From an uncultured Acidobacteriota bacterium (GTDB lineage Bacteria > Acidobacteriota > Thermoanaerobaculia > Gp7-AA8 > CAVUJZ01), in assembly GCA_963741905.1 (NCBI GenBank), contig CAVUJZ010000017.1, positions 273,626 to 337,625 of the forward strand: a stretch of 64,000 nucleotides of DNA, in the 5' to 3' direction. Under the pieces are notes generated by a model that was not told the origin of the DNA, did not search any database, and saw nothing but the letters and a program-made list of their open reading frames with translations. Of this stretch, positions 3,800 to 60,159 are shown one piece after another. The position numbers and the translations under genes are program-made. Positions within the stretch are counted from its first letter, which is position 1; each line of letters starts with the position of its first letter.

Positions 3800-4611
3800 A
3801 TGGCGTACGTCTACACGGCGGACGACGAGCGGTTGTGGGAACTGAACGCGACCACCAGCCGGTCGCAGTACACCCTGCGGGATCTCGACCACAAGCCGCT
3901 GCGGGTGATCGAGGAGGACGGCTCGTCGGGGACGGCGGTCTGGAGCTGGAAGGAGGACTGGGTCTACCGCGGGGGGACGCTGATGACGGCGGTCAAGCCC
4001 ACCGGGGATCCAGTTCCACGTCGACCACCTGGGGACGCCGCGCCTCGTCACCAACTCCACCCGCGGGACGGTCGGCCTGCATCAGTACTACCCCTTCGGC
4101 GAGGAATCGACCTCCCCGACGCAGGACACCGAGGAGCTGAAGTTCACCGGCCACGAACGGGACACCGAATTCTCCGGAGCCCGCGACTACCTCGATTACA
4201 TGCACGTCCGGTATTATGCCGATGGGGCGACGGTGCTTATCAGTTGATCCTTCGCAGAACACTTGCAAGAACCGCACGAGTACCGCAGACGAATGGAACC
4301 GCTAAACGTATGTGCTCGACAAGCCGCTTCGTGCGAGGGAGCTGACGGCAAATATCAGCCCGGCGTGGGGTCGGTTTTTATCCGTGGATCCGGTCCTCGA
4401 TGTAAAACAGGCGATGACGAACCCTCAGGGTTGGAACCGATACGCGTACGTGTTCGACAACCCGCTCCGCTTCACAGACCCGACGGGCAAATATGTATGC
4501 CGTGGTGATGAGGCCTCATGCAAGGCGATCGAGGCGACGCTTGGCGTGATGAAGCAAGCGGCAGCCGGGTTGAAGAGCGACGACCCACGTCAAGCGCAAC
4601 GAATCAGGTGA
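3800..4611 (+). pseudogene. Orphan RHS/YD-repeat core C-terminal fragments: two nested core ends plus a short C-terminal tip
   Basis: Starts MAYVYTADDERLWEL..YTLRDLDHKPL (YD repeats). There is a 2-nt indel near 4005 relative to the copy at 6699. A first core end reads YY.PMGRRCLSVDP..EWNR(TAA)TYVLDKPL and contains an in-frame stop. A second core end at 4312-4611 reads SPAWGRFLSVDP..GWNRYAYVFDNPLRFTDPTGKY and is followed by a tip of only about 40 aa. Confidence 0.7.
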
Positions 4612-6698: not shown

Positions 6699-7190
6699 AT
6701 GGCGTACGTCTACACGGCGGACGACGAGCGGCTGTGGGAGCTGAACGTCACCACCAGCCGGTCGCAGTACACCCTGCGGGATCTCGACCACAAGCCGCTG
6801 CGGGTGATCGAGGAGGACGGCTCGTCGGGGACGGCGGTCTGGAGCTGGAAGGAGGACTGGGTCTACCGCGGGGGGACGCTGATGACGGCGGTCAAGCCGA
6901 CGGGTCGGATCCAGTTCCACGTCGACCACCTGGGGACGCCGCGCCTCGTCACGAACTCCACCCGCGGGACGGTCGCCCTGCACCAGTACTACCCCTTCGG
7001 CGAGGAGTCGACCTCCCCGACGCAGGACACCGAGGAGCTGAAGTTCACCGGCCACGAACGGGACACCGACTTTTCCGGAGCGCGCGACTACCTGGACTAC
7101 ATGCATGCCCGGTACTACAGCCCGATGATGGGGAGGTTCCTGAGCGTGGATCCGGGCGGCATGGACCCGAGTACGCCGCAGTCAGACGCG
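6699..7190 (+). pseudogene. Orphan RHS core fragment no. 2, truncated by REP sequences
   Basis: About 425 nt are near-identical to 3800-4222. It reads in frame through HVDHLGTPRLVTN..YYPFGEE..FTGHERD..YMHARYYSPMMGRFLSVDP and then runs into the REP copies at 7198. No toxin tip is present. Confidence 0.7.
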
Positions 7191-12183: not shown

Positions 12184-12248
12184 TGATAGCTCGCGATGAG
12201 AACGGTGTGAGAGCTCCCGTCGGCCACGAAGCCCATGCGGGTGCCGCT

Positions 12249-13640
12249 CTCGTCATCCTGAGCGCCAGTACACGTGTCGAAGCCCATGCCGTGGGTCGCC
12301 CTCGTCATCCTGAGCGCCGGCAAACGTGTCGAAGCCCATGCGGTGGGTCGCGAAGGATCTTGCCTTCGTGAGGGTCGAGAGCGCGGCACACGCGAAACGC
12401 CGGTACTACCCGCTGGGCTCGATTCGCCACCAGCGCGGATTCGTCTCGACCGTTGCGAGAGGCAAGATCCTTCGCGGGACGGTTCTCGGCTTCGACACCA
12501 GCACGGGCGCTCAGGATGACCGAGTGGGGGACGTTCCCGCAAGGTTGTCGCCCTCGTCATCCTGAGCGCCGGCAAACGTGTCGAAGCCGATGCGGTGGGT
12601 CGCGAAGGATCTTGCCTTCGTGAGGGTCGAGAGCGCGGCACACGCGAAACGCCGGTACTACCCGCTGCGCTCGATTCGCGCGGATTCGTCTCGACCGTTG
12701 CGAGAGGCAAGATCCTTCGCGGGACGGTTCTCGGCTTCGACACCAGCGCGGGCGCTCAGGATGACCGGGTGGGGGTCCGTTGCCGTAAGGTTGTCGCCCT
12801 CGTCATCCTGAGCGCCGGCGAACGTGTCGAAGCCGATGCTGTGGGTCGCGAAGGATCTTGCCTTCGTGAGGGTCGAGAGCGCGAAACGCGACACCGCTGC
12901 GCTCGATTCGCCCATCAGCGCGGATTCGTCTCGACCGTTGCGAGAGGCAAGATCCTTCGCGGGACGGTTCGCGGCTTCGACACCAGCGCGGGCGCTCAGG
13001 ATGACGGAGTGGGGGACGTTGCCGTAAGGTTGTCGCCCTCGTCATCCTGAGCGCCAGTGAACGCGTCGAAGCCGATGCGGGTGCCCCCTCGTCATCCTGA
13101 GCGCCGGCAAGCGTGTCGAAGCCGATGCTGTGGGTCGCCCTCGTCATCCTGAGCGCCGGCGAACGCGTCGAAGCCGATGCTGTGGGTCGCGAAGGATCTT
13201 GCCTTCGTGAGGGTCGAGAGCGCGGCACACGCGAAACGCCGGTACTACCCGCTGCGCTCGATTCGCCCTCCGCGCGGATTCGTCTCGACCATTGCGAGAG
13301 GCAAGATCCTTCGCGGGACGGTTCGCGGCTTCGACACCAGCACGGGCGCTCAGGATGACCGGGTGGGGGACGTTGCCGCAAGGTTGTCGCCCTCGTCATC
13401 CTGAGCGCCAGTGAACGTGTCGAAGCCGATGCCGTGGGTCGCGAAGGATCTTGCCTTCGTCAGGGTCGAGATTCCTCCACGCGAAACGCCGGTACCACCC
13501 GCTGCGCTCGATTCGCCACCAGCGCGGATTCGTCTCGACCGTTGCGAGAGGCAAGATCCTTCGCGGGACGGTTCTCGGCTTCGACCCCAGCACTGGCGCT
13601 CAGGATGACCGAGTGGGCGACATTGCCGCGAGGTCGCCCG
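12249..13640. repeat. Tandem array of about 250-bp units, each containing a long (about 215-nt) imperfect palindrome
   Basis: Full units lie at 12301-12520, 12553-12765, 12799-13005, 13140-13359 and 13393-13609. Each is bounded by CTCGTCATCCTGAGCGCC and GGCGCTCAGGATGAC, with mirrored internal blocks (TGTCGAAGCCGA/TCGGCTTCGACA and CGCGAAGGATCTTGCC/GGCAAGATCCTTCGCG). Left-arm-only copies of 52 nt lie at 12249, 13038 and 13088. A conserved linker of about 32 nt (..GTGGGGGACGTTGCCGCAAGGTTGTCGCC) joins the units. Confidence 0.9.
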
Positions 13641-13728
13641 CAACACGTCGCTGGTCGACAGCCGCGTGGGCGAGGGGAGCGCGTTTCATGTTGCCCTTCC
13701 CGCCCTGGACGCCGGGCGCGACTGAACT

Positions 13729-20752: not shown

Positions 20753-23700
20753 CTATGGTTTCTGGTGGAGCTCCTGAAGGCTCAGAAGTGTGTGGACTCC
20801 CTCCTGCATCGCCCGGATTCCCTCGACCGCGGCGGTGGCCGCCGAGATCGTGGTGATGCAGGGGATGGAACGCTGCAGGGCGATCCGCCGGATGTAGGTG
20901 TCGTCGTACCAGGCGAACCGGCCCAGAGGTGTATTGATCACCAGATCGATCTCGTCGTTGATCATCCGGTCGGTGATGTTCGGCCGTCCTTCGTGAACCT
21001 TGAGGACCAGCTCCGCCTCGACGCCGTGATCTTCCAGGTACTGACGCGTCCCGGTGGTGGCCACCAGATGAAAGCCGAGCTCGTGAAGCTCCTTCGCCAG
21101 CGGAACGATTGATCTCTTGTCTTCCTGGTTGACGGAGATGAATGCGGTTCCGGTGCGAGGAAGAGCCTGGCCCGCGCCAAGAAGCGCCTTGACGTAGGCT
21201 TCGCCGAAGGAAGACGAACTGCCCATCACTTCGCCGGTCGACTTCATCTCCGGGCCGAGAACGGTGTCTTCGCGCGGGAACCGGGAGAAGGGGAAGACCG
21301 GAGCCTTGACGAAGTAATGATCAAGCTTCGGTTCGGCGGTCAGCCCGATCTGGTCGAGCGTCTCGCCAGCCATGACCCGCGCCGCGATCTTCGCAAAGGG
21401 AACGCCGGTCGCCTTCGAGACGTACGGAACTGTTCGGGATGCGCGGGGATTGACCTCGAGCACATAGATCTCACCCTGATGGATGGCGAACTGGATGTTC
21501 ATCAGTCCGACCACCTTCAGCAGCTTCGCGAGCTCGACCGTCCTTCGCCGGATCCGATCGAGATCCCGTGGTGAGAGCGCCCAGGCAGGAACCACCGTGG
21601 TGGAATCGCCGGAGTGGATTCCGGCCTCCTCGATGTGCTGCATGATGCCACCGATCACCACCCGGTTGCCGTCGGAGAGCGCATCGACGTCGATCTCGAA
21701 TGCATTCTCGAGAAACCGGTCGAGCAGAATGGGATGCTCGGGCGAGGCTTCCGCGGCCTCACGGGTGTAGCGCTCCAGAGCGGATTCGTCGTAGACCACC
21801 GCCATGGCCCGGCCTCCGAGAACGTAGGAGGGACGGACCACCAGCGGATATCCGATCCGCCCGGCGATCTCCAGCGCCTGCTCTTCCGAGCTTGCACTTC
21901 CATTCTCCGGAACCGGGATCCCCGCCTTCTCCAGCAGGTCCCCGAACCGCTCCCGGTCTTCGGCGAGGTCGATCGATTCGGTGGAAGTCCCCCAGAGCGG
22001 GACCCCGGCGGCAGCGAGGGCTCCGGCCAGTTTGAGGGGGGTCTGCCCTCCGAACTGGAGGATCACCCCGGCGGGTTTTTCCAGATCGATGACCTCCAGA
22101 ACGTCCTCGAGGGTGAGGGGCTCGAAGTAGAGCCGATCCGAGGTGTCGTAGTCGGTCGAGACCGTCTCGGGATTGCAGTTGATCATGATCGTTTCGAGGC
22201 CCTGCTCGCGGAGCGCGAACGAAGCATGCACGCAACAGGAGTCGAACTCGATCCCCTGGCCGATTCGATTCGGTCCGGAGCCGAGAATCACCACCTTGCG
22301 GCGATCGGTGGGATTCGATTCGTTCTCCGTTTCCCAGGTCGAATAGAGATAAGGAGTGCTCGCCTCGAACTCGGCCGCGCAGGTGTCGACGCGCTTGTAG
22401 ACGGGGCGCAGACCGAGGCGATGCCGCAGTTCCCGCACCGCGGTTTCACTCTGTCCCGTGAGTCGCGCCATCTGCCGGTCGGAGAATCCCAGCCGCTTCC
22501 ATCGCCTCAGGTCCCCGCGAAGGTGATCGTCCCCGGAGGCGAAGCGCTCGGCAGCGGCGACGATCTCCCGCTCCGCCGCGATGATCCGCTCCATCTGCTG
22601 GAGAAACCAGGGATCGATCCAGCTGGTCTGATAGATCTCGTCGCGGCTGATGCCGGCTCGCATCGCATCCGCCACGGCGTAGATCCGGGTGGGTGTCGCG
22701 GTGCGCATCAGGTCCACCAGACGCTGGCGATCGGCGCCCGCAAACTGGCTCTGCAGCCCGTCGACGCCGGTCTCGAGAGAGCGGAGCCCCTTCTGCAGCG
22801 CCTCGTTGAAGGTTCGTCCGATTGCCATGACCTCGCCGACCGATTGCATCGACAGGCCGAGGTTGGGCGGGGTGTTGGGGAACTTCTCGAATGCGAAGCG
22901 GGGGATCTTGACCACCACGTAGTCGATGACCGGCTCGAACGACGCGGGAGTCTTCCGGGTGATGTCGTTGGGGATCTCGTCGAGGGTGTAGCCGACGGCG
23001 AGTTTCGCGGCGAATTTCGCGATGGGGAACCCGGTGGCCTTGGATGCGAGGGCCGAGGATCGGGAGACCCGCGGATTCATCTCGATGACGACCCGCTGGC
23101 CATCTTTCGGATTGACGGCGAACTGGATGTTCGAGCCGCCGGTCTCGACTCCGATGGCGCGGATGATCGTCTTGGCGTCATCCCGCATCGCCTGGTACTC
23201 CTCGTTCGACAGGGTCATCTGAGGAGCCACGGTGATCGAGTCGCCGGTGTGAACCCCCATCGGATCGAAGTTCTCGATCGAGCAGACGATGATCACGTTG
23301 TCGGCATGATCCCGCATCACCTCCAGCTCGAACTCCTTCCAACCCAGAACCGACTCTTCGATCAGCACGCTGTGGACCGGGGAAAGCTGCAGGCCGCGGC
23401 TGACGATCTCCCGGAATTCTTCGACGTTGTAGGCGATCCCGCCGCCCGTGCCGCCGAGGGTGAAGGAGGGGCGGATGACGATGGGATAACCGATGTCGAT
23501 CGCCAGGGCGAGCGCCTCGTCGAGGGTGGTGGCGTAGCCCGAGCGCGGGACGGCGATGCCGGCTCGGGTCATCGCCTCCTTGAACAACTGCCGGTCTTCG
23601 GCGGTCTTGATCGCTTCGTAGCTCGCGCCGATCAGCTCGACCCCGTGCTCGGCGAGCACCCCGGCCTCGTGCAGCCCGATGGCGAGGTTCATTCCGGTCT

Positions 23701-23977
23701 GCCCGCCGACGGTGGGGAGGATGGCGTCCGGTTTCTCGCGCGCGATGATCTCCGCCACGACCGGAACCGTCAGTGGCTCAATGTAGGTGCGATCCGCGAA
23801 TTCCGGATCGGTCATGATCGTGGCGGGATTGGAATTGACCAGAATGATCCGGTAGCCCTCGTCCCGGAGAGCCTTGCAGGCCTGCGTACCCGAGTAGTCG
23901 AATTCACAGGCTTGTCCGATGACGATGGGGCCGGATCCGATGACCAGGATCGAGGAGATATCGGTGCGCTTTGGCAT
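20753..23977 (-). CDS. carB: Carbamoyl-phosphate synthase large subunit
   Basis: 1074 aa from [42 protein letters not shown]. It has duplicated ATP-grasp halves and an MGS-like C-terminus. The longer ORF in the track only adds translation of the heptamer repeat. Confidence 0.95.
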
Positions 23978-24004
23978 CGAAGACAGGATGGTACCGCATT
24001 CGGA

Positions 24005-24225
24005 GGCGAGAGGCGAGAGGCGAGAGGTGAGAGGTGAGAGGTGAGAGGTGAGAGGTGAGAGGTGAGAGGTGAGAGGTGGAGAGGTGAGAGGTGAGAGGTG
24101 AGAGGTGGAGAGGTGAGAGGTGAGAGGTGAGAGGTGAGAGGTGAGAGGTGGAGAGGTGAGACGGTGAGAGGTGAGAGGTGAGACGGTGAGAGGTGAGAGG
24201 TGAGAGGTGAGACGGTGACGGTGGG
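24005..24225. repeat. Heptanucleotide tandem repeat (GAGAGGT/GAGAGGC), about 31 units with interspersed 8-mers
   Basis: The tract reads (CGAGAGG)x3, (TGAGAGG)x7, TG, GAGAGG, (TGAGAGG)x3, TG, GAGAGG, (TGAGAGG)x5, TG, GAGAGG, TGAGACGG and so on. It ends 28 nt upstream of the carB ATG. On the carB sense strand it reads (ACCTCTC)n. Confidence 0.95.
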
Positions 24226-24475
24226 AGGCACCTTTGGTGGGGGTTGGGCCTCTGGCCCGATCCCCGGGCGGCCTCCGGCCCCCGAGGGCGCGCTCCACAG
24301 GCGACCCGGGTTCACTCTGGGCGTCCCACTCTTATCCGAAGTGAGACGGTGAGCGAATCGAGACGGTGGTCATCGTTTCGAGCGGCGGGGCGACCCGGGC
24401 AAGTGAGGCATCTTGTCCGATCCCGGTTTGGACCTCCGGTCTCCGGTCACCCTATCTGCGGTATGCTCTCGGCCG

Positions 24476-47581: not shown

Positions 47582-47770
47582 CGGAGAACCCGAACGAGGG
47601 GAGGACGGACCGATGAAATGATGCGACGACCTCGGGAACGAAGCTTCATCCCTGGATGTCACCTCGAGTAAGGGAGAGAGATTCGATGCGTGGTGTGGTC
47701 AGATACAGTCGCTGGTTCAGATTCGGATGCCGTCAACCCCGGAACACACCCTACTTCTGGAAATGGATGA

Positions 47771-47802
47771 GGCCGGTCTCTCGCGGACCGGCCTTCCTTT
47801 TT
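47771..47802 (+). terminator. Rho-independent terminator candidate downstream of ftsZ
   Basis: GGCCGGTC-tctcgcg-GACCGGCC is followed by TTCCTTTTT. Confidence 0.6.
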
Positions 47803-50418: not shown

Positions 50419-53400
50419 CTACCGCTTGATCGCAACCATCCCGCCCAGGGCGAGGATCAGCGCGAGCAGCGCCAGGCCGAGGGGGGAGACTGCCGGAATG
50501 TCGTTGGTGACCGCAAACGCGGTGGGACCGGTTCCGCCCGAGCCGGGAACCGAACTGATCACCGACTCGTTGGTTCCGTCACCGTTCTGGTCGAAGTGAA
50601 GAATCCCCTCATTCTCGACCGTCCCTCCGACCGCCCGTGAATCGACGGTCGCCGTAATGGTGATGGTGACGCTGGTTCCGGACGGGATCGCTCCGTTCCA
50701 GGTCACCAGGTTCGTCGAGGGGTCCGCGATTGCAGTGCCGCTGTCCGCCTCGGCGCTGACCAGATGCAGCAGGTGAACGTCGAGCTGATCCTCGAATTCA
50801 TTCCCCGGATTGTCCATCTGATCTCCGCCGCCGTTGTTGGTCAGGACCACCGTGTAGACCACCGTGCCGGTCCCGCGGAATTCGCCCGACACACTCTTGG
50901 TCGCGGTGACGGCCGCGGGGAACCGGAAGTACGCAACGGGAGCATCGTGATCGCTGATCCGCTCCGGACGGGTGAAGTCGTTGCGGTAAATTTCCGGGAA
51001 GTCCGCATTGTTGCGCGCGTACTCCATCCCGGCGGAGAAGGGAAGCGCGGCGGGGCTCAGCAGCACGTGGTCGAGAACCTGCGCGTTCCCCTCGAACAGG
51101 AAGGAGTAGCGCTCGGTCGAGGGGAGGAGGTTGACCAGGTTGGTCAGATCGGGATCGATCAGATCCGCGGAAGCCTGGAGCACCTGATCCGCCGGCGCAG
51201 GACTGCCCTGGACCGCACCCATCACGTCGACGTATCCGTCGTTGAACTGATACGCGTTGAAGTCTCCGACCAGCACGATCCGTTCGTCCGGATTGATCGT
51301 CAGGCGGGACTGGACGTAGTTCGCCAGCCACTCGCCTCCGGCATTCCGCTTCGCGCGTACGCGCTCCCCTCCGCTTGGATCGTCGATCCCGGAGAGCGAG
51401 CGGAAGTGGTTGACGATCACCGTGATCGGGAAGGGATCCCCGACCGGCGGATTCACCAGCGCTTCGAGAACCAGCGGCGGACGATCCCAGATCAGATCCT
51501 CCGATGAAGTGGTCGGGTTGGTGAAGGTGTCGGTCTTGCCTACCTGAGTCACCGAGAGGACGGTCACTCGTCCGCCGCCCTTGACCAGCAGGCCGACGTC
51601 GATGCCGCCGATGTCATTGCCTTCCTCGAGATAGGCGGTGTACTGCGGGTCGGGCTGGCTGGCCGCGATTGCATCGGTGGAGATGCGGCTGGCCAGAGCC
51701 TGGAGTGTCGAGAGATTCTCGATCTCGACGATTCCCAGGATGTCCGGCGTCCGGAGTACATTCCGGATCGCCAGCGAGGCCTTCTGCAGACGGTGATCGA
51801 ACGCGGTGGGAGTGAGGACCGGATCATCCGTGTCGGGATCATTCACGGTGTCGAAGAACCGTTCCAGGTTGAACGACGAGACGGTGAACTCGCTCGGCAG
51901 TGCTGCCCGAACCGGGGTCGCCGTCACGTTGCCGGTGATGGTCGTCGGTGATGTCGGATCCGGCAGGACCGTCCAGGTCCGGTAGGCGAAGTCCATCACG
52001 CCCGTCATGTCGGTCAGGGTTGCGCCGGCAGTGACGTCGAGGGTCGGTGCTCCAACCAGAGCGTCGCTGTCGATGCGAAGGCGCTCGGGATTCTCGTCAA
52101 AGTGAGGAATGCAGCAGGGAGCACCGGGGACCGGGAAGTCGAGATCCTCGATGCCGGGCTCACGGAACGTACGACCCACGCCGGTGACCACGGCGTAGAA
52201 CAGGCCGTTCGACGACGAGGTGGCGTCGGTCTCGTTCACGCTGCCCTCGGTGCCGTGCACCACGGTGAGTGACGGGAACCGGACCCGCATCCCCTCGAAA
52301 GGCTCGAGCTGGTCGAGGCCGCCGGAGGGATCGGTCTGCGCGGCGGTGATGGTGATCGGTGCAGGCAGCGGATTGCCGGTGGAGAACGTGCACCAGGTGG
52401 CGAATCCGGAGATCTCGGTCAGTGGCGGGCTCGCCGGATCGGCCGAGGGGATGTAGTCGTCGACCGTGCCGGTGACCTGAAGGTAATCGCCCAGGGCAAC
52501 GGATGGGGTGGAGCTGGTGAAGACGAAGATTCCTTCCGAGGTATTCGGATCGGCATCGATGTCCGCATCCGGTGTCTGCAGATAGAACCCGTTGTATTTG
52601 ACCGCGGTGACCACGCCCTCGGTGGTGACGGTGTTGCCGTCTTCCGGCGAGAGCGATCCGGCGCCCTGGATGCCGTGGATCGGCGTGACCACGCTCGCCG
52701 GTACGGTGACGACGACGCTCGCGGAGGCGGTTCGGGTCTGATCATCGGCGATGGTGATCGGAATCGTGTACGCGCCCTCGGAGAGTGCACCGCTGATCGT
52801 CGTCTGGAAGCTGAAGGTGTCATCACCAGGGACCACGTCCCCGTTCGAGCCGTCGTCGTAGAACGTCTGCGATGCTGCCCCACCGATGGAGGTGAGGTCA
52901 CCGGTGACCGTGAGGCCGGTGCTCGGCGGGGTGTAGCCGGGGGTGACGATCACGGTGAGCAGCGTCGAGCCGCCCGCGGGAACGCAGGAGGGGATGGCGA
53001 CTCCCATGCCGGTCGGTTTCCCCGAATTGTGCGGGTCGGGGGATCCTGCAGTGAAATCGTCGGCGTTCACGTCGGTGTCGGTTGCACCGCCCGCCAGGCG
53101 GGTCGCCGCGGTGGTGTTACTCAGTCCGGGTGCCGCGCCGCTGCCTTCGTAGCAGTTGGCGCTCCCGTACCCGACGAAGTCGTAGACCTCCGCCGCGGGA
53201 ATCGGGCAGGTACCGGAAAGGCTGCTCGTCCCATTGACCAGCGCAACCTTTCCGTTGGTGCCGGACATGGAGATCCCGCCGATGACGTCCGGCTCGGGAA
53301 GAGGTACCCCGTTCGAGCCGCCGTTCTCCTGCACCAGGAAATGCCCTCCCGGCTGAATGAATCCGGTCAGCGGGGTGACCTGCCATGAGCTGCCGGATGA

Positions 53401-54568
53401 CGATGCGTACTGGACCGACCAGCCGTCGAGGAGGAATTCGGTCGAGCCCGGGTTGTAGAGCTCGATGAAGTCGTGATCCAGGGGAGCGCCGGAGTTTCCG
53501 CCGCCGCCGTAAACCTGGCTGATGGTCAGCGCCGGCGGCGTGATCGTGGCGGTCAGGGTGATCGAAGTCGATCCGTTCCGGGCCTGGGCGTCGGTGATCG
53601 AGATCGGAATCGTCTTGACGCCCTGGGGTGTGGAGTTGTCGACCGTGGCGTTGAAGGAGAAGGTGTTGTCGCCGGAGGTGACGTCGCCATTCGTGCCGTT
53701 ATCGTAGAAGGGCTGCGAGGCGCTTCCGCCGATGGAGGAGAGATCGCCGGTTACCGCGAGTCCGGTGGAAGTAGGACTCGCGCCCGGAATCACGGTGACG
53801 GTGAGCAGCGTGGTGTTTCCGATGATTACGGTGGACGGGTTTGCAGAGCCGGTTCCGCTCGGGTTCGATGCCTCGGTGATCGAAATGTCGTCGATGCCCA
53901 CCCATTCGTCATTGCCGGCAGCGTTGGTGGTGATGACGCGGATCTGAACCGCCGACTGGTTGTCCGCGGCCGCCGGCAGGATCACACTTCACCGGGGTGA
54001 CCAGAGTGGCGAGATTCGGTCCGGTTGTGGCGTCGGCGATGTAGCCGCCAGCGAGATTGGTGAAGCTTCCACTGGTGCCGACTCGATACTGAAGCGCAAC
54101 CTGCTGGTTCGTATCGTCACCGCCACCGTCGATGTCCCGGACGTTGTACTGAACCCGGATGTTCGACTTGCCGGTCGTGTCGATGGTGATCAGAAGAAAC
54201 GGCGCATCGGCCGTTCCCGATCCCTGCAGAGCCACCACCGGATCGGTGATTCCGTCGAATTCGGTGACCCCTCCCGTGGCGTAGGTATTCGGATCGCTGC
54301 GATTCGCGTTGACGTCGACCGTGGTCTCGTCGGCGGTGATCGTCTGGGGATCCGTGCCGGTGGAGGCGGTCAGTCCGTCACCGCGATACCCGGTGATCCC
54401 CGCGACGCCGCTCCAGTCGTCGGTCGCGGTGATCAGACTGCCGTCGCTCCAGTCCTGGGTGAACGGTATCGTCTGTGGTGTGTTGTCGGCGCGAAGAGAG
54501 AAAAGCGGAAAGAGGATTGTCAGCGAAAGGAAAAGGAAAACGGGACGAAGGCATTTCGAAACGAGCAT
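50419..54568 (-). CDS. ExeM/NucH/Xds-like extracellular nuclease (lamin-tail domain, OB-like, endonuclease/exonuclease/phosphatase) with a C-terminal IPTL-CTERM-like sorting signal; one frameshift near 53985
   Basis: The ATG at 54568 is preceded by AAGGAG and followed by the signal peptide MLVSKCLRPVFLFLSLTILFPLFSLRA. There are two Ig-like repeats (..TGL.VTGDL.SIGG.ASQ.FYD.G.NGDV..GD.TFSF). The LTD segment reads ISQVYGGGGNSGAPLDHDFIELYNPGSTEF. IHGIQGAGSLSPEDGNTVTTEGVVTAV follows. The EEP domain has FTVSSFNLERFFD, ILGIVEIEN, VLVGDFNAYQF and LDHVLLSP. The C-terminus is DIPAVSPLGLALLALILALGGMVAIKR. Confidence 0.8.
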
Positions 54569-54780
54569 GCAGCGAGACTCCTTGCTGAGAATTGACCCCC
54601 GCAACACCCGCCACACCCTCGAGAACGCACCCTTCAGTTTCGGAAGCCGAGCGTCCGGCATTATATGCCCCGAAGGTGCAATTCTGGTGTGAAGTTTTTC
54701 AGGAGCCAGCGTTCGACCGCTCGAGGAGCGGGGAAAGGCCATTGCTGTGAAGTGGACCAGACCTCCTCAGGCCTGTGAAG

Positions 54781-55703
54781 TGGGCCGGGCCTTCCCAGGC
54801 CCGGCCCCGCGTAAAGCGTGCAGGTTACGCAGCCCGGGCTACGTGCCGAGATGTTGGACCCGCCTGAAAGCCCGCGCGACGGTCGCCGCTTCGTCGCCCG
54901 TGCCGGTCGAGAGCCAAGGTCGTCGCGGGACCGAGCGAAGGAACACTCGGTCCACTTTGTCGAGTTGCCCAGGTGGGCCGGGCCTTCCCAGGCCCGGCCC
55001 CGCGTAAAGCATGCAGGTTACGCAGCGCGGGCTACGTGCCGAGATGTTGGACCCGCCGGGAACCCGGCGCGACGGTCGCCGCTGCGTCGCCCGGGCCGGT
55101 CGAGAGCCAAGGGCGTCGCGGGACCGAGCGTAGGAACACTCGGTCCACTTTGTCGAGTTGCCCAGGTGGGCCGGGCCTTCCCAGGCCCGGCTCCGCGTAA
55201 AGCATGCAGGTTACGCAGCCCGGGCTACGTGCCGAGATGTTGGGCCCGCCGGGAACCCGGCGCGACGGTCGCCGCTTCGTCGCCCGTGTCCGTCGAGAGC
55301 CAAGGGCGTCGCGGGACCGAGCGAAGGAACACTCGGTCCACTTTGTCGAGTTGCCCGCGTAAAGCATGCAGGTTGCGCAGCGCGGGCTACCTCCCGAGAT
55401 GTTGGACCCGCCTGAAAGCCCGCACGACGGTCGCCGCTTCGTCGCCCGTGTCCGTCGAGAGCCAAGGTCGTCGCGGGACCGAGCGTAGGAACACTCGGTC
55501 CACTTTGTCGAGTTGCCCAGGTGGGCCGGGCCTTCCAGGCCCGGCCCCGCGTAAAGCGTGCAGGTTACGCAGCGCGGGCTACGTGCCGAGATGTTGGACC
55601 CGCCGGAAAGCCGGCGCGACGGTCGCCGCTTCGTCGCCCGGGCCGGTCGAGAGCCAAGGTCGTCGCGGGACCGAGCGAAGGAACACTCGGTCCACTTTGT
55701 CGG
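54781..55703. repeat. Tandem array of five units of about 190 bp, rich in GC hairpins
   Basis: Units lie at 54781-54973, 54974-55166, 55167-55356, 55357-55521 (this one lacks the first 30-nt hairpin) and 55522-55703. Each contains GGGCCGGGCC-ttccca-GGCCCGGCCC, GCGTAA-N10-TTACGC, GCGACG-N10-CGTCGC and GGACCGA-N12-TCGGTCC. The array ends 7 nt from the corrected guaA stop. Confidence 0.9.
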
Positions 55704-55710
55704 GCAGGAT

Positions 55711-57333
55711 CATTCCCACTCGATGGTGCTGGAGGCTTCGACGAGATGTCGTAGACCACCCGGTTGATGCCCCGAACCTCGTTGACGATCCGCCGCGAGA
55801 TCTGATCCAGCACCTCGTGGGGAAAGCGGTACCAGTCCGCCGTCATGAAGTCGCTGGTGGTCACCGCACGGATCGCCGCTACATTCTCGTAGGTTCGCTC
55901 GTCGCCCATCACTCCGACACTTCGTACCGGGAGAAGAACGGTGAGCGCCTGGGAGATCTCCGCATACAGTCCGGCCTTCCGGATCTCCTCGATCAGAATG
56001 GCGTCCGCTTCCTGCAGGATCTCCACCCGCTCCGGGGTGACTTCCCCAGGATCCGCACGGCGAGCCCGGGTCCCGGGAACGGGTGCCGCCAGACGAACTC
56101 CTCGTCCAGCCCCAGTTCCAGTCCCAGTCTCCGCACCTCGTCCTTGAACAGCTCCCGCAAGGGCTCGATCAGCGCCAGTCCCATCTTCTCCGGCAGGCCC
56201 CCGACGTTGTGGTGCGTCTTGATCACCGCGGAGGGACCCTTGACCGAGACCGACTCGATCACGTCGGGGTAGAGGGTTCCCTGGACCAGAAACTTCACGT
56301 CCGGGATCTTCTTCGCCTCTTCCTCGAAGACGCCGATGAACTCGTGACCGATCTTCCGCCGCTTCAGTTCCGGGTCGGAGACGCCTGCGAGCTCTCGATA
56401 GAACCGTTCCCGCGCATCAACGGCAACAATGTTCAACCCGAGACCGTCGCTGAGGCGAGAGACCACCTGGATCGCCTCGTTCTTCCGCAGCACGCCATTG
56501 TCGACGAATACCGCGGTGAGCTGCTTTCCGATCGCCTCGCTGACCAGCACCGCGGCGACCGACGAATCCACGCCACCACTGACCGCGGCGATCACGTGGC
56601 TGTCACCGACCGTCTCCCGGATCTCCTCGACCTTCCGCCGCCGGAAATCCTCCAGATTCCATTCGCCACGGCATCCGCAGATCTCGAACAGGAAGTTTCT
56701 CAGGATCTGCGACCCATACTCGGTGTGGGTCACCTCCGGATGGAACTGGATGCCCCAGATTCTTCTCTCCGGGTTTTCGAAGGCGGTGAAGGGGGCGTTG
56801 GGCGAGGTGGCGATCCGCCCGAAACCGTCGGGGGCAGCGAGAATCCGATCCCCGTGGCTGGCCCAGACTTTCTGGCGTGCCGGAGTGCCGCGGAACAGCA
56901 CGCTGTCTCCCTCGGTAGTGATCTCCGCCCGGCCGTACTCCCGCTCCTCGGCGGCCTGAACGTTTCCGTCCAGGAAATAGGTGGTGAGCTGCATCCCGTA
57001 GCAGATGCCGAGAATGGGAGCGCCGAGATCGAAGTAGGCGCGGTCGCACCAGGGGGCATCCTCGCCGTACACCGACTGCGGGCCCCCGGAGAGGATGATG
57101 CCGCGGGGCGCCATCGCCCGCGCATCGGCGATCGGAAAGTCGAAAGGATGGATCTCGCAGTAAACGTTCTGCTCGCGAATTCTACGGGCGATGAGCTGGG
57201 TGTACTGCGAACCGAAATCGAGAACGAGAATGGATTCGTCGCGGCTGGTCATCTCGGGGGCGAATTGTACTTCGGATGGCGTTGAGGCGCAGCGCCCCGG
57301 TCCGTGGCATTCCTTATGCTCTCGATTGCGCAT
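55711..57333 (-). CDS. guaA: GMP synthase (glutamine-hydrolysing); two 1-nt deletions near 56033 and 55730
   Basis: GATase [20 protein letters not shown], the ATP-PPase motif [13 protein letters not shown], and ..[14 protein letters not shown] then (frame change in a G-run) [30 protein letters not shown] then (frame change) ATIEWE-stop. Confidence 0.9.
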
Positions 57334-59949: not shown

Positions 59950-60026
59950 AGGCGCTTAGCTCAGCTGGTTAGAGCACCACCTTCACACGGTGGGGGTCAG
60001 CGGTTCGAGTCCGCTAGCGCCTACCA
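59950..60026 (+). tRNA. tRNA-Val (anticodon CAC), CCA encoded
   Basis: Cloverleaf folded by hand. Acceptor AGGCGCT/AGCGCCT, D arm GCTC..GAGC, anticodon stem CCACC/GGTGG with loop TTCACAC, T arm AGCGG-TTCGAGT-CCGCT, then A-CCA. Confidence 0.9.
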
Positions 60027-60082: not shown

Positions 60083-60159
60083 AGGCTCTTAGCTCAGCTG
60101 GTTAGAGCGCCACCTTGACACGGTGGAGGTCAGCGGTTCGAGTCCGCTAGAGCCTACCA
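60083..60159 (+). tRNA. tRNA-Val (anticodon GAC), CCA encoded
   Basis: Acceptor AGGCTCT/AGAGCCT, anticodon loop TTGACAC, and the same D and T arms as the neighbouring tRNA. It lies 56 nt downstream of it. Confidence 0.9.

Follow-up and report, generated by a model that had tools for sequence, protein, structure and literature searches.

The described systems closest to the locus reported here are the minisatellite or VNTR loci, such as the mycobacterial MIRUs, the REP and BIME clusters of enterobacteria, and the NsiR1 arrays. MIRUs are about 40–100 bp long, with unit lengths divisible by three and small ORFs that overlap the ends of the genes on either side, lie in frame with the flanking ORFs and constitute a dispersed family. 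REPs measure about 35 nt and occur in hundreds of dispersed copies, and BIMEs alternate in orientation. Each repeat of an NsiR1 array is equipped with a regulated promoter and a terminator of its own, and conservation of the sRNA extends across genera. REP325, a six-repeat palindrome cluster, is the source of the RNA naRNA4 (PMC4550694), and NsiR1 of heterocystous cyanobacteria is made up of tandem sRNA repeats (Ionescu et al. 2010, as cited in PMC4734099).

The array analysed here lies between guaA and a nuclease gene in a window of 64 kb, the whole stretch of DNA that was analysed, which belongs to a contig of about 547 kb. Its organization is analogous to that of minisatellite or VNTR loci, with head-to-tail repeats in one spacer between genes of the same strand, imperfect units and mosaic variants, in a class whose arrays are often lineage-specific. 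A minisatellite requires at least three head-to-tail repeats, each exceeding 10 bp, outside coding sequence; here there are five, with a 193-nt period. By contrast with MIRUs, the period of 193 bp is long for the class, the unit is not a multiple of three, and no other copy is present in the window; with units of 193, 193, 190 and 165 nt, the register changes from one unit to the next. As in REP and BIME clusters, GC-rich extragenic palindromes capable of forming hairpins or cruciforms are reiterated 3' of a gene, where they could plausibly act as mRNA 3' barriers or protein-binding sites. The unit, however, measures 193 bp, contains several unrelated stems in one orientation and occupies a single locus within the 64-kb window, in which neither dispersed short palindromes nor an alternating orientation of this kind was found. 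The array shares with NsiR1 the arrangement of non-coding direct repeats beside a gene, each of which could in principle yield one small structured RNA, but its units carry no promoter or terminator consensus and are not conserved outside the contig. In contrast to CRISPR arrays, the units abut with no unique spacers. Neither convincing terminal inverted repeats (by reading) nor dispersed copies in the window, as in MITEs, were found. We assign a probability of about 0.6 to the array being a lineage-specific, non-coding minisatellite that expanded in the guaA–nuclease spacer of one Thermoanaerobaculia lineage.

Organization of the tandem array

The array spans positions 54780–55703 and is formed by five head-to-tail units of 193, 193, 190, 165 and approximately 183–192 nt. 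TRF reports a 193-nt period at 54780–55356 (score 1056, 95% matches) that is continued to 55702 by rows of 162 and 192 nt, and a repeat search of the window places the starts of the five copies 193, 193, 162 and 192 nt apart. The MAFFT alignment of the five units has a mean column identity of 93%, and over the 155 columns common to all five the pairwise identity between units ranges from 91.6 to 97.4%. The number of array copies expected by chance in the pattern searches of the window is zero. Both genes lie on the minus strand and are separated by 1,142 nt, of which the array takes 924 nt (81%). TRF, the repeat search and MAFFT are in agreement with the original prediction, which had described five head-to-tail units filling most of the gap between the two genes, the fourth without its first hairpin. 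The features of the region are the following.

54780–55703, unstranded: whole array, five units, 70% G+C (TRF, repeat search, MAFFT, composition)
54780–54972, unstranded: unit 1, 193 nt, nearest the nuclease gene, CGCCKG stem broken (MAFFT, folding)
54973–55165, unstranded: unit 2, 193 nt (MAFFT)
55166–55355, unstranded: unit 3, 190 nt, its last 3 nt within the 31-nt deletion (MAFFT)
55356–55520, unstranded: unit 4, 165 nt, without the 26-nt GC palindrome (MAFFT)
55521–55703, unstranded: unit 5, adjoining guaA (sequence, MAFFT)
54745–54772, unstranded: degenerate partial copy (28 nt, 82%) in which the left edge of the array and the palindrome's 5' arm are repeated (TRF, repeat search)
54569–54779, minus strand: unique 211-nt nuclease-proximal spacer, 59% G+C (sequence, composition)
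55711–57252, minus strand: guaA (GMP synthase), with two 1-nt deletions (protein comparison)
50419–54568, minus strand: secreted nuclease with LTD and endonuclease/exonuclease/phosphatase domains (ORFs, domains, homologues)

Unit 4 is the most divergent, with 91.6–94.2% identity to the other four. At its border with unit 3, the alignment lacks 31 nt, which comprise the last 3 nt of unit 3 and the first 28 nt of unit 4; this gap coincides exactly with the GC hairpin of unit 4 and has GCC(C) microhomology on its flanks. Variants are shared among the units in non-nested patterns, reading, for example, CGCGG at column 55, TGGTT at column 141, ATATA at column 159, and CCTTC/GGCCG at columns 124/126, which is typical of established arrays undergoing concerted evolution. 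The array has a G+C content of 70% against 59% in the adjacent unique spacer, and is therefore not simply duplicated ordinary intergenic DNA. As the inter-unit junction CTGGGCAACT matches neither flank of the array, simple duplication in situ of the flanks now present fails to account for how the unit arose. The partial copy at 54745–54772 marks an earlier local duplication.

Unit homology extends as far as 55703, leaving 7 nt to the guaA stop codon (TCA at 55711–55713, ending ...TIEWE*), and the opposite edge of the array lies 211 nt before the nuclease ATG (54568–54566). By reading, the unique spacer contains a TATAAT-like hexamer (54665 to 54660), not called by the scan for consensus promoters, together with a ribosome-binding site, AAGGAG (54583 to 54578). 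Just upstream of the hexamer, the octamer TGTGAAGT occurs three times on the plus strand (54689, 54747 and 54775), its last copy touching the array edge; these octamers may constitute a candidate regulator-binding repeat.

Distribution of the unit and the loci of relatives

No sequence similar to the unit was found elsewhere in the 64-kb window with nhmmer or with word-7 blastn on the masked window (E < 0.01), and neither the 26-nt palindrome nor the unit has a further copy there at up to 3 mismatches. The lack of similarity to the 12–13 kb array, as proposed originally, was thereby reproduced, and it holds for the rest of the window as well. The window does contain other repeats. About 30 tandem GAGGTGA heptamers, with occasional GGAGAGGTGA or GACGGTGA variants, occupy positions 24003–24218, inside or bordering a long ORF on the minus strand (20753–24298), and a duplication of about 420 bp is present at 3800–4216 and 6699–7117, the two copies being 2.9 kb apart and 94–97% identical.

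Exact-pattern scans, for which four different conserved stretches of the unit were used, gave 0 matches in the GTDB representative genomes (two different 23-mers), 0 in the JGI metagenomes (two unit patterns) and 0 in the IMG/VR viral contigs (one conserved stretch). No match to the unit was detected in plasmids and phages by blastn in 'distant' mode, or in seven loci from relatives by nhmmer and blastn, and a literature search for tandem repeats between genes of Acidobacteria returned nothing. Across the collections searched, the unit is an orphan. The guaA protein shares 78–80% amino acid identity with proteins of Thermoanaerobaculia MAGs, which places the host among the uncultured Acidobacteriota of the class Thermoanaerobaculia; the same search found no close relative of the host among 5.8 billion proteins (at most 80% amino acid identity). 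Since the nearest relatives are this distant, the absence of the unit elsewhere is weak evidence against a function.

Among the relatives examined, only one locus, the Logan contig L004, has the guaA–nuclease pair. In L004, guaA (...SKPPSTIEWE*) is followed by a 335-bp spacer and a nuclease with 66% amino acid identity, and nucleotide homology with the window (84%) ends at the guaA stop codon. In the L004 spacer, a good promoter (TTGCGT-N16-TATAAT), a small hairpin and a duplication of 14 nt are present, with zero copies of any unit-like sequence. The nuclease homologue of L005 is located in a different context, and at the other five loci (L001, L002, L003, L006 and L007) guaA has other downstream neighbours, which are a convergent gene of 626–663 aa, ftsZ and a DUF6036 gene. 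The region 3' of guaA is a synteny breakpoint among the Thermoanaerobaculia relatives examined.

The array is missing from L004, the only relative with the gene pair, and therefore does not represent a conserved element of the guaA 3' side or the nuclease 5' side. A conserved guaA 3' element was likewise rejected on the basis of the downstream regions at the guaA loci of five relatives, which are short and unrelated, and a conserved nuclease 5' leader on the basis of the L004 spacer, which has no similarity to the unit, and of the different context in L005. The absence of the unit from relatives implies a lineage-specific expansion within an older guaA–nuclease spacer. The 3' end of guaA is an attachment site for some genomic islands. 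Integration of a mobile element at this site was considered and discarded, as neither an integrase nor a duplicated guaA end was seen and the anomaly at the C-terminus is a 1-nt deletion.

Hairpins and folding of the unit

Two hairpins are located at the ends of the unit, given here with the coordinates of their first copies.

54782–54807, unstranded: 26-nt GC palindrome, GGGCCGGGCC-TTCCCA-GGCCCGGCCC (repeat search, folding)
54928–54953, unstranded: hairpin GGACCGAG-N10-CTCGGTCC (pattern search, folding)

The GC palindrome is repeated at 54975–55000, 55168–55193 and 55523–55547 and is missing from unit 4. The GGGCCGGGCC/GGCCCGGCCC hairpin (about 10–11 bp) has a predicted energy of −28.4 kcal/mol (z −5.5 against shuffled controls), and no U-tract follows it on either strand. 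The GGACCGAG hairpin is found in all five units, with further copies at 55121, 55314, 55476 and 55668, and its GGACCGAG/CUCGGUCC stem of 10 bp has an energy of −19.4 kcal/mol (z −5.3 against shuffled controls). Both end hairpins are invariant in each unit that possesses them. Read on the minus strand, the unit opens with the −19 kcal/mol hairpin and closes with the −28 kcal/mol hairpin.

The stems named in the original prediction (a 10-bp stem, GCGTAA/TTACGC, GCGACG/CGTCGC and GGACCGA/TCGGTCC) are all present, GCGTAA/TTACGC being weak (z −1.1). The same prediction saw partly compensatory changes in one stem, an interpretation that the alignment contradicts. Units 2, 3 and 5 have the same 6-bp stem and differ only in its 4-nt loop (plus-strand GAAC or AAAG). 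In units 1 and 4, two changes affect separate base pairs and break both, and folding of the stem is lost (−2.1 kcal/mol, z +1.0). Across the five units, none of the 65 pairs predicted by RNAalifold is changed on both sides, a comparison of five near-identical copies that has low power; the covariation term (+2.11) is a penalty, approximately seven substitutions break predicted pairs, and four leave only a G-U wobble.

Against dinucleotide shuffles, the whole unit folds with z values of −2.6 (plus strand) and −3.2 (minus strand). When compared with all 193-nt windows of the 64 kb by regression on G+C, these values become −0.6 and −1.2, respectively, and 24% (plus) and 8% (minus) of the background windows fold as well as the unit or better. 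Folding is therefore ordinary once G+C is taken into account, and much of the apparent structure of the array is due to its G+C content of 70%. The strongest-folding part of the window is a complex array at 12227–13684, with units of 52, 250 and 354 nt, whose GC-adjusted folding energies (MFE z −5 to −7, both strands) contrast with those of the 193-nt array.

The Rfam search advised in the original prediction was run with Rfam 15 and matched no family to the array at the gathering score. The only matches in the window are two tRNAs outside the array (59950–60023 and 60083–60156), which are 94% identical, lie 133 bp apart, have the anticodon loops CAC and GAC, and are probably both tRNA-Val. 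Sub-threshold matches (E ≤ 10), among them several miRNA models, score 14–21 bits against thresholds of 38–99 and represent noise; the best is RsmW, with 20.9 bits against a gathering score of 52. The RsmW match prompted the consideration of a CsrA sponge, which was set aside because GGA occurs, by eye, about four times per unit on the plus strand against two to three on the minus strand, a number that is not striking. Inspection by eye also yielded no convincing motif of an integron attC array, a sigma-54 promoter or a G-quadruplex. A consensus-type scan of positions 54300–56000 detected neither a sigma-70-like promoter nor a terminator of the hairpin-plus-T-run type in any unit. A canonical terminator does occur in this genome, after ftsZ (47769–47795).

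The array had been described at the outset as an amplified structured element. The first half of this description stands, in that the array is real, amplified, non-coding and located in the guaA–nuclease spacer; the second, the reading of the array as a structured element, is weakly supported, as selected RNA structure was not found and 0 of 65 pairs covary.

An array of functional RNAs is an unlikely alternative in the face of these results. It would require processing of the minus-strand 3' UTR of guaA in the A/U-richer linkers CAACUCGACAAAGU, which would release modules about 190 nt in length with a role as sRNAs, in sponging a protein or in acting on the nuclease in cis. The hairpins of −19 and −28 kcal/mol that bound each minus-strand unit, invariant where present, agree with such modules, as do the shuffle z values of the whole unit (−2.6 plus, −3.2 minus), the start of the array 7 nt past the guaA stop codon, which makes read-through plausible, and the precedent of NsiR1, where sRNAs are encoded in tandem direct repeats. 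The interior of the unit, by contrast, shows broken pairs without covariation and an internal stem destroyed in two of the five units, its folding is ordinary against background of the same G+C, no consensus-type promoter or terminator was found in any unit and no Rfam family matches, and the array is absent from L004, the only syntenic relative. That the locus represents a new kind of 3'-UTR-derived RNA array, composed of five modules of about 190 nt with a 10-bp hairpin at the 5' end and a GC hairpin of 11 bp at the 3' end, seems very improbable.

A role at the level of the DNA is likewise doubtful. Its palindromes could form a cluster that binds proteins or extrudes cruciforms, similar to REP and BIME clusters and recognized by nucleoid proteins or gyrase; alternatively, the array could be a tuner of the nuclease promoter that depends on copy number, or a member of a family dispersed elsewhere in the genome. 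The perfect GC palindrome per unit with arms of 10 bp, the presence of shorter palindromes such as GCGAC-G-GTCGC, and the position of the array directly upstream of the nuclease promoter region would suit such a role. With up to 3 mismatches allowed, the 64-kb window yields no further palindrome or unit, which argues against it, as does the composition of the 193-bp unit, in which several unrelated hairpins in one orientation take the place of alternating palindromic units of about 35 bp. Nor was a RAYT-like gene noticed, and L004 has the gene pair without the element.

Neighbouring genes and quality of the assembly

Comparison of the guaA protein with its homologues locates two 1-nt deletions in the gene. 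In the first, GGGGG is shortened to GGGG at approximately 56040–56044 (...RILG|EVTPE...), and in the second, one base is lost at approximately 55727, 17 nt before the stop codon (...SKPPA|TIEWE*). If real, these deletions would make guaA a pseudogene whose frame runs about 50 codons into the array. The nuclease contains a lamin-tail domain and an endonuclease/exonuclease/phosphatase domain, and its homologues are 'extracellular nucleases' of 1,350–1,400 aa. In the window it is split into a 219-aa ORF with the signal peptide and a 1188-aa ORF, which overlap at 53909–53985 in different frames; the split probably reflects a third frameshift, situated no more than about 4 kb from the array. The cell-division (dcw) genes at 36–47 kb, ten in number, are intact. 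The guaA deletions and the split of the nuclease gene are probably indel errors of a long-read assembly. Given such errors in the window, unit details at the level of homopolymers (193 or 192 nt) are unreliable. What defines the array are substitutions and a clean deletion, not homopolymer indels.

These errors also bear on the copy number of the array and on the variants of its units, which could in theory be artefacts of assembly from error-prone long reads. The 1-nt indels near the array (guaA, ~56040 and ~55727), the split nuclease gene and the fact that the organism is on record as a single contig speak for this explanation. It is nevertheless very unlikely, as the units are told apart by mosaic substitutions and the clean 31-nt deletion instead of homopolymer indels, assemblers usually collapse tandem repeats and seldom invent them, and an array of 0.9 kb is easily spanned by long reads.

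Coding potential

The unit length is indivisible by three and the reading register shifts between units. The spread of G+C over codon positions is 0.15 in the array against a mean of 0.33 in coding windows. A chimeric six-frame query, meant to catch spurious ORFs called on related arrays, matched no protein at E ≤ 0.001 among 5.8 billion. The 484-aa ORF that extends across the array had been regarded as an artefact from the beginning, and the present data concur, since its register shifts between units and it then runs antisense to guaA. A hidden coding repeat of about 64 aa, its frame masked by indel errors, is extremely unlikely, for although 192 and 162 nt, half of the four spacings, are divisible by three, indel errors are present nearby and several frames lack stop codons, the Arg/Pro/Gly/Ala-rich translations are junk-like and match no protein among the 5.8 billion, the codon-position GC periodicity is weak, the variable sites are spread over the codon positions (7/9/2, hand tally), and both the end of guaA and the start of the nuclease signal peptide lie outside the array. 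For annotation, caution is advisable at this locus, as the array yields the spurious 484-aa ORF and its neighbours guaA and the nuclease gene are frameshifted.

Discussion

No sign of selected structure or function is found in the array. Among the readings offered originally, the fallback of simply selfish DNA fits best. A minisatellite at this locus would have been created, and would be maintained, by unequal recombination of the RecA type, together with slippage during replication and gene conversion between units, and these processes would account for the mosaic sharing of variants. The loss of 31 nt in unit 4 could be the result of slipped-strand excision of the palindrome between the GCC(C) microhomologies.

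As a minisatellite, the array would have no sequence-specific function, and any side effect is likely to be physical. Its expansion would have stretched the spacer from approximately 220–335 bp to 1.14 kb. Read-through from guaA would place nine stable hairpins (four of −28 and five of −19 kcal/mol) in the guaA 3' region, and these could act as exonuclease barriers or as transcriptional roadblocks that insulate the nuclease promoter. By analogy with the 3' barriers formed by REP and BIME elements in E. coli, the array might be, at most, an incidental hairpin-rich insulator.

Several observations run counter to a purely neutral minisatellite. The array has been kept even though its units have diverged by 3–8% through substitution, and since direct repeats of 193 bp should be lost readily by recombination, this retention could hint at selection. 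In addition, the two end hairpins are invariant, with z values of about −5, the G+C content of the array exceeds that of the neighbouring spacer (70% and 59%), and the inter-unit junction corresponds to neither flank.

Were the array to encode RNAs, these would be stable molecules that control the extracellular nuclease encoded next to them or sequester a protein, in a dosage set by the copy number of the units; discrete unit-length RNAs, if ever shown, would provide an example of a tandem sRNA array outside cyanobacteria. For a lineage-specific minisatellite, the significance is modest. Bacterial intergenic tandem repeats are already known, and the 193-bp array is one more example, a lineage-specific intergenic repeat from the poorly sampled class Thermoanaerobaculia in an assembly with visible indel errors. 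For the lineage that carries it, the array is a candidate VNTR marker.
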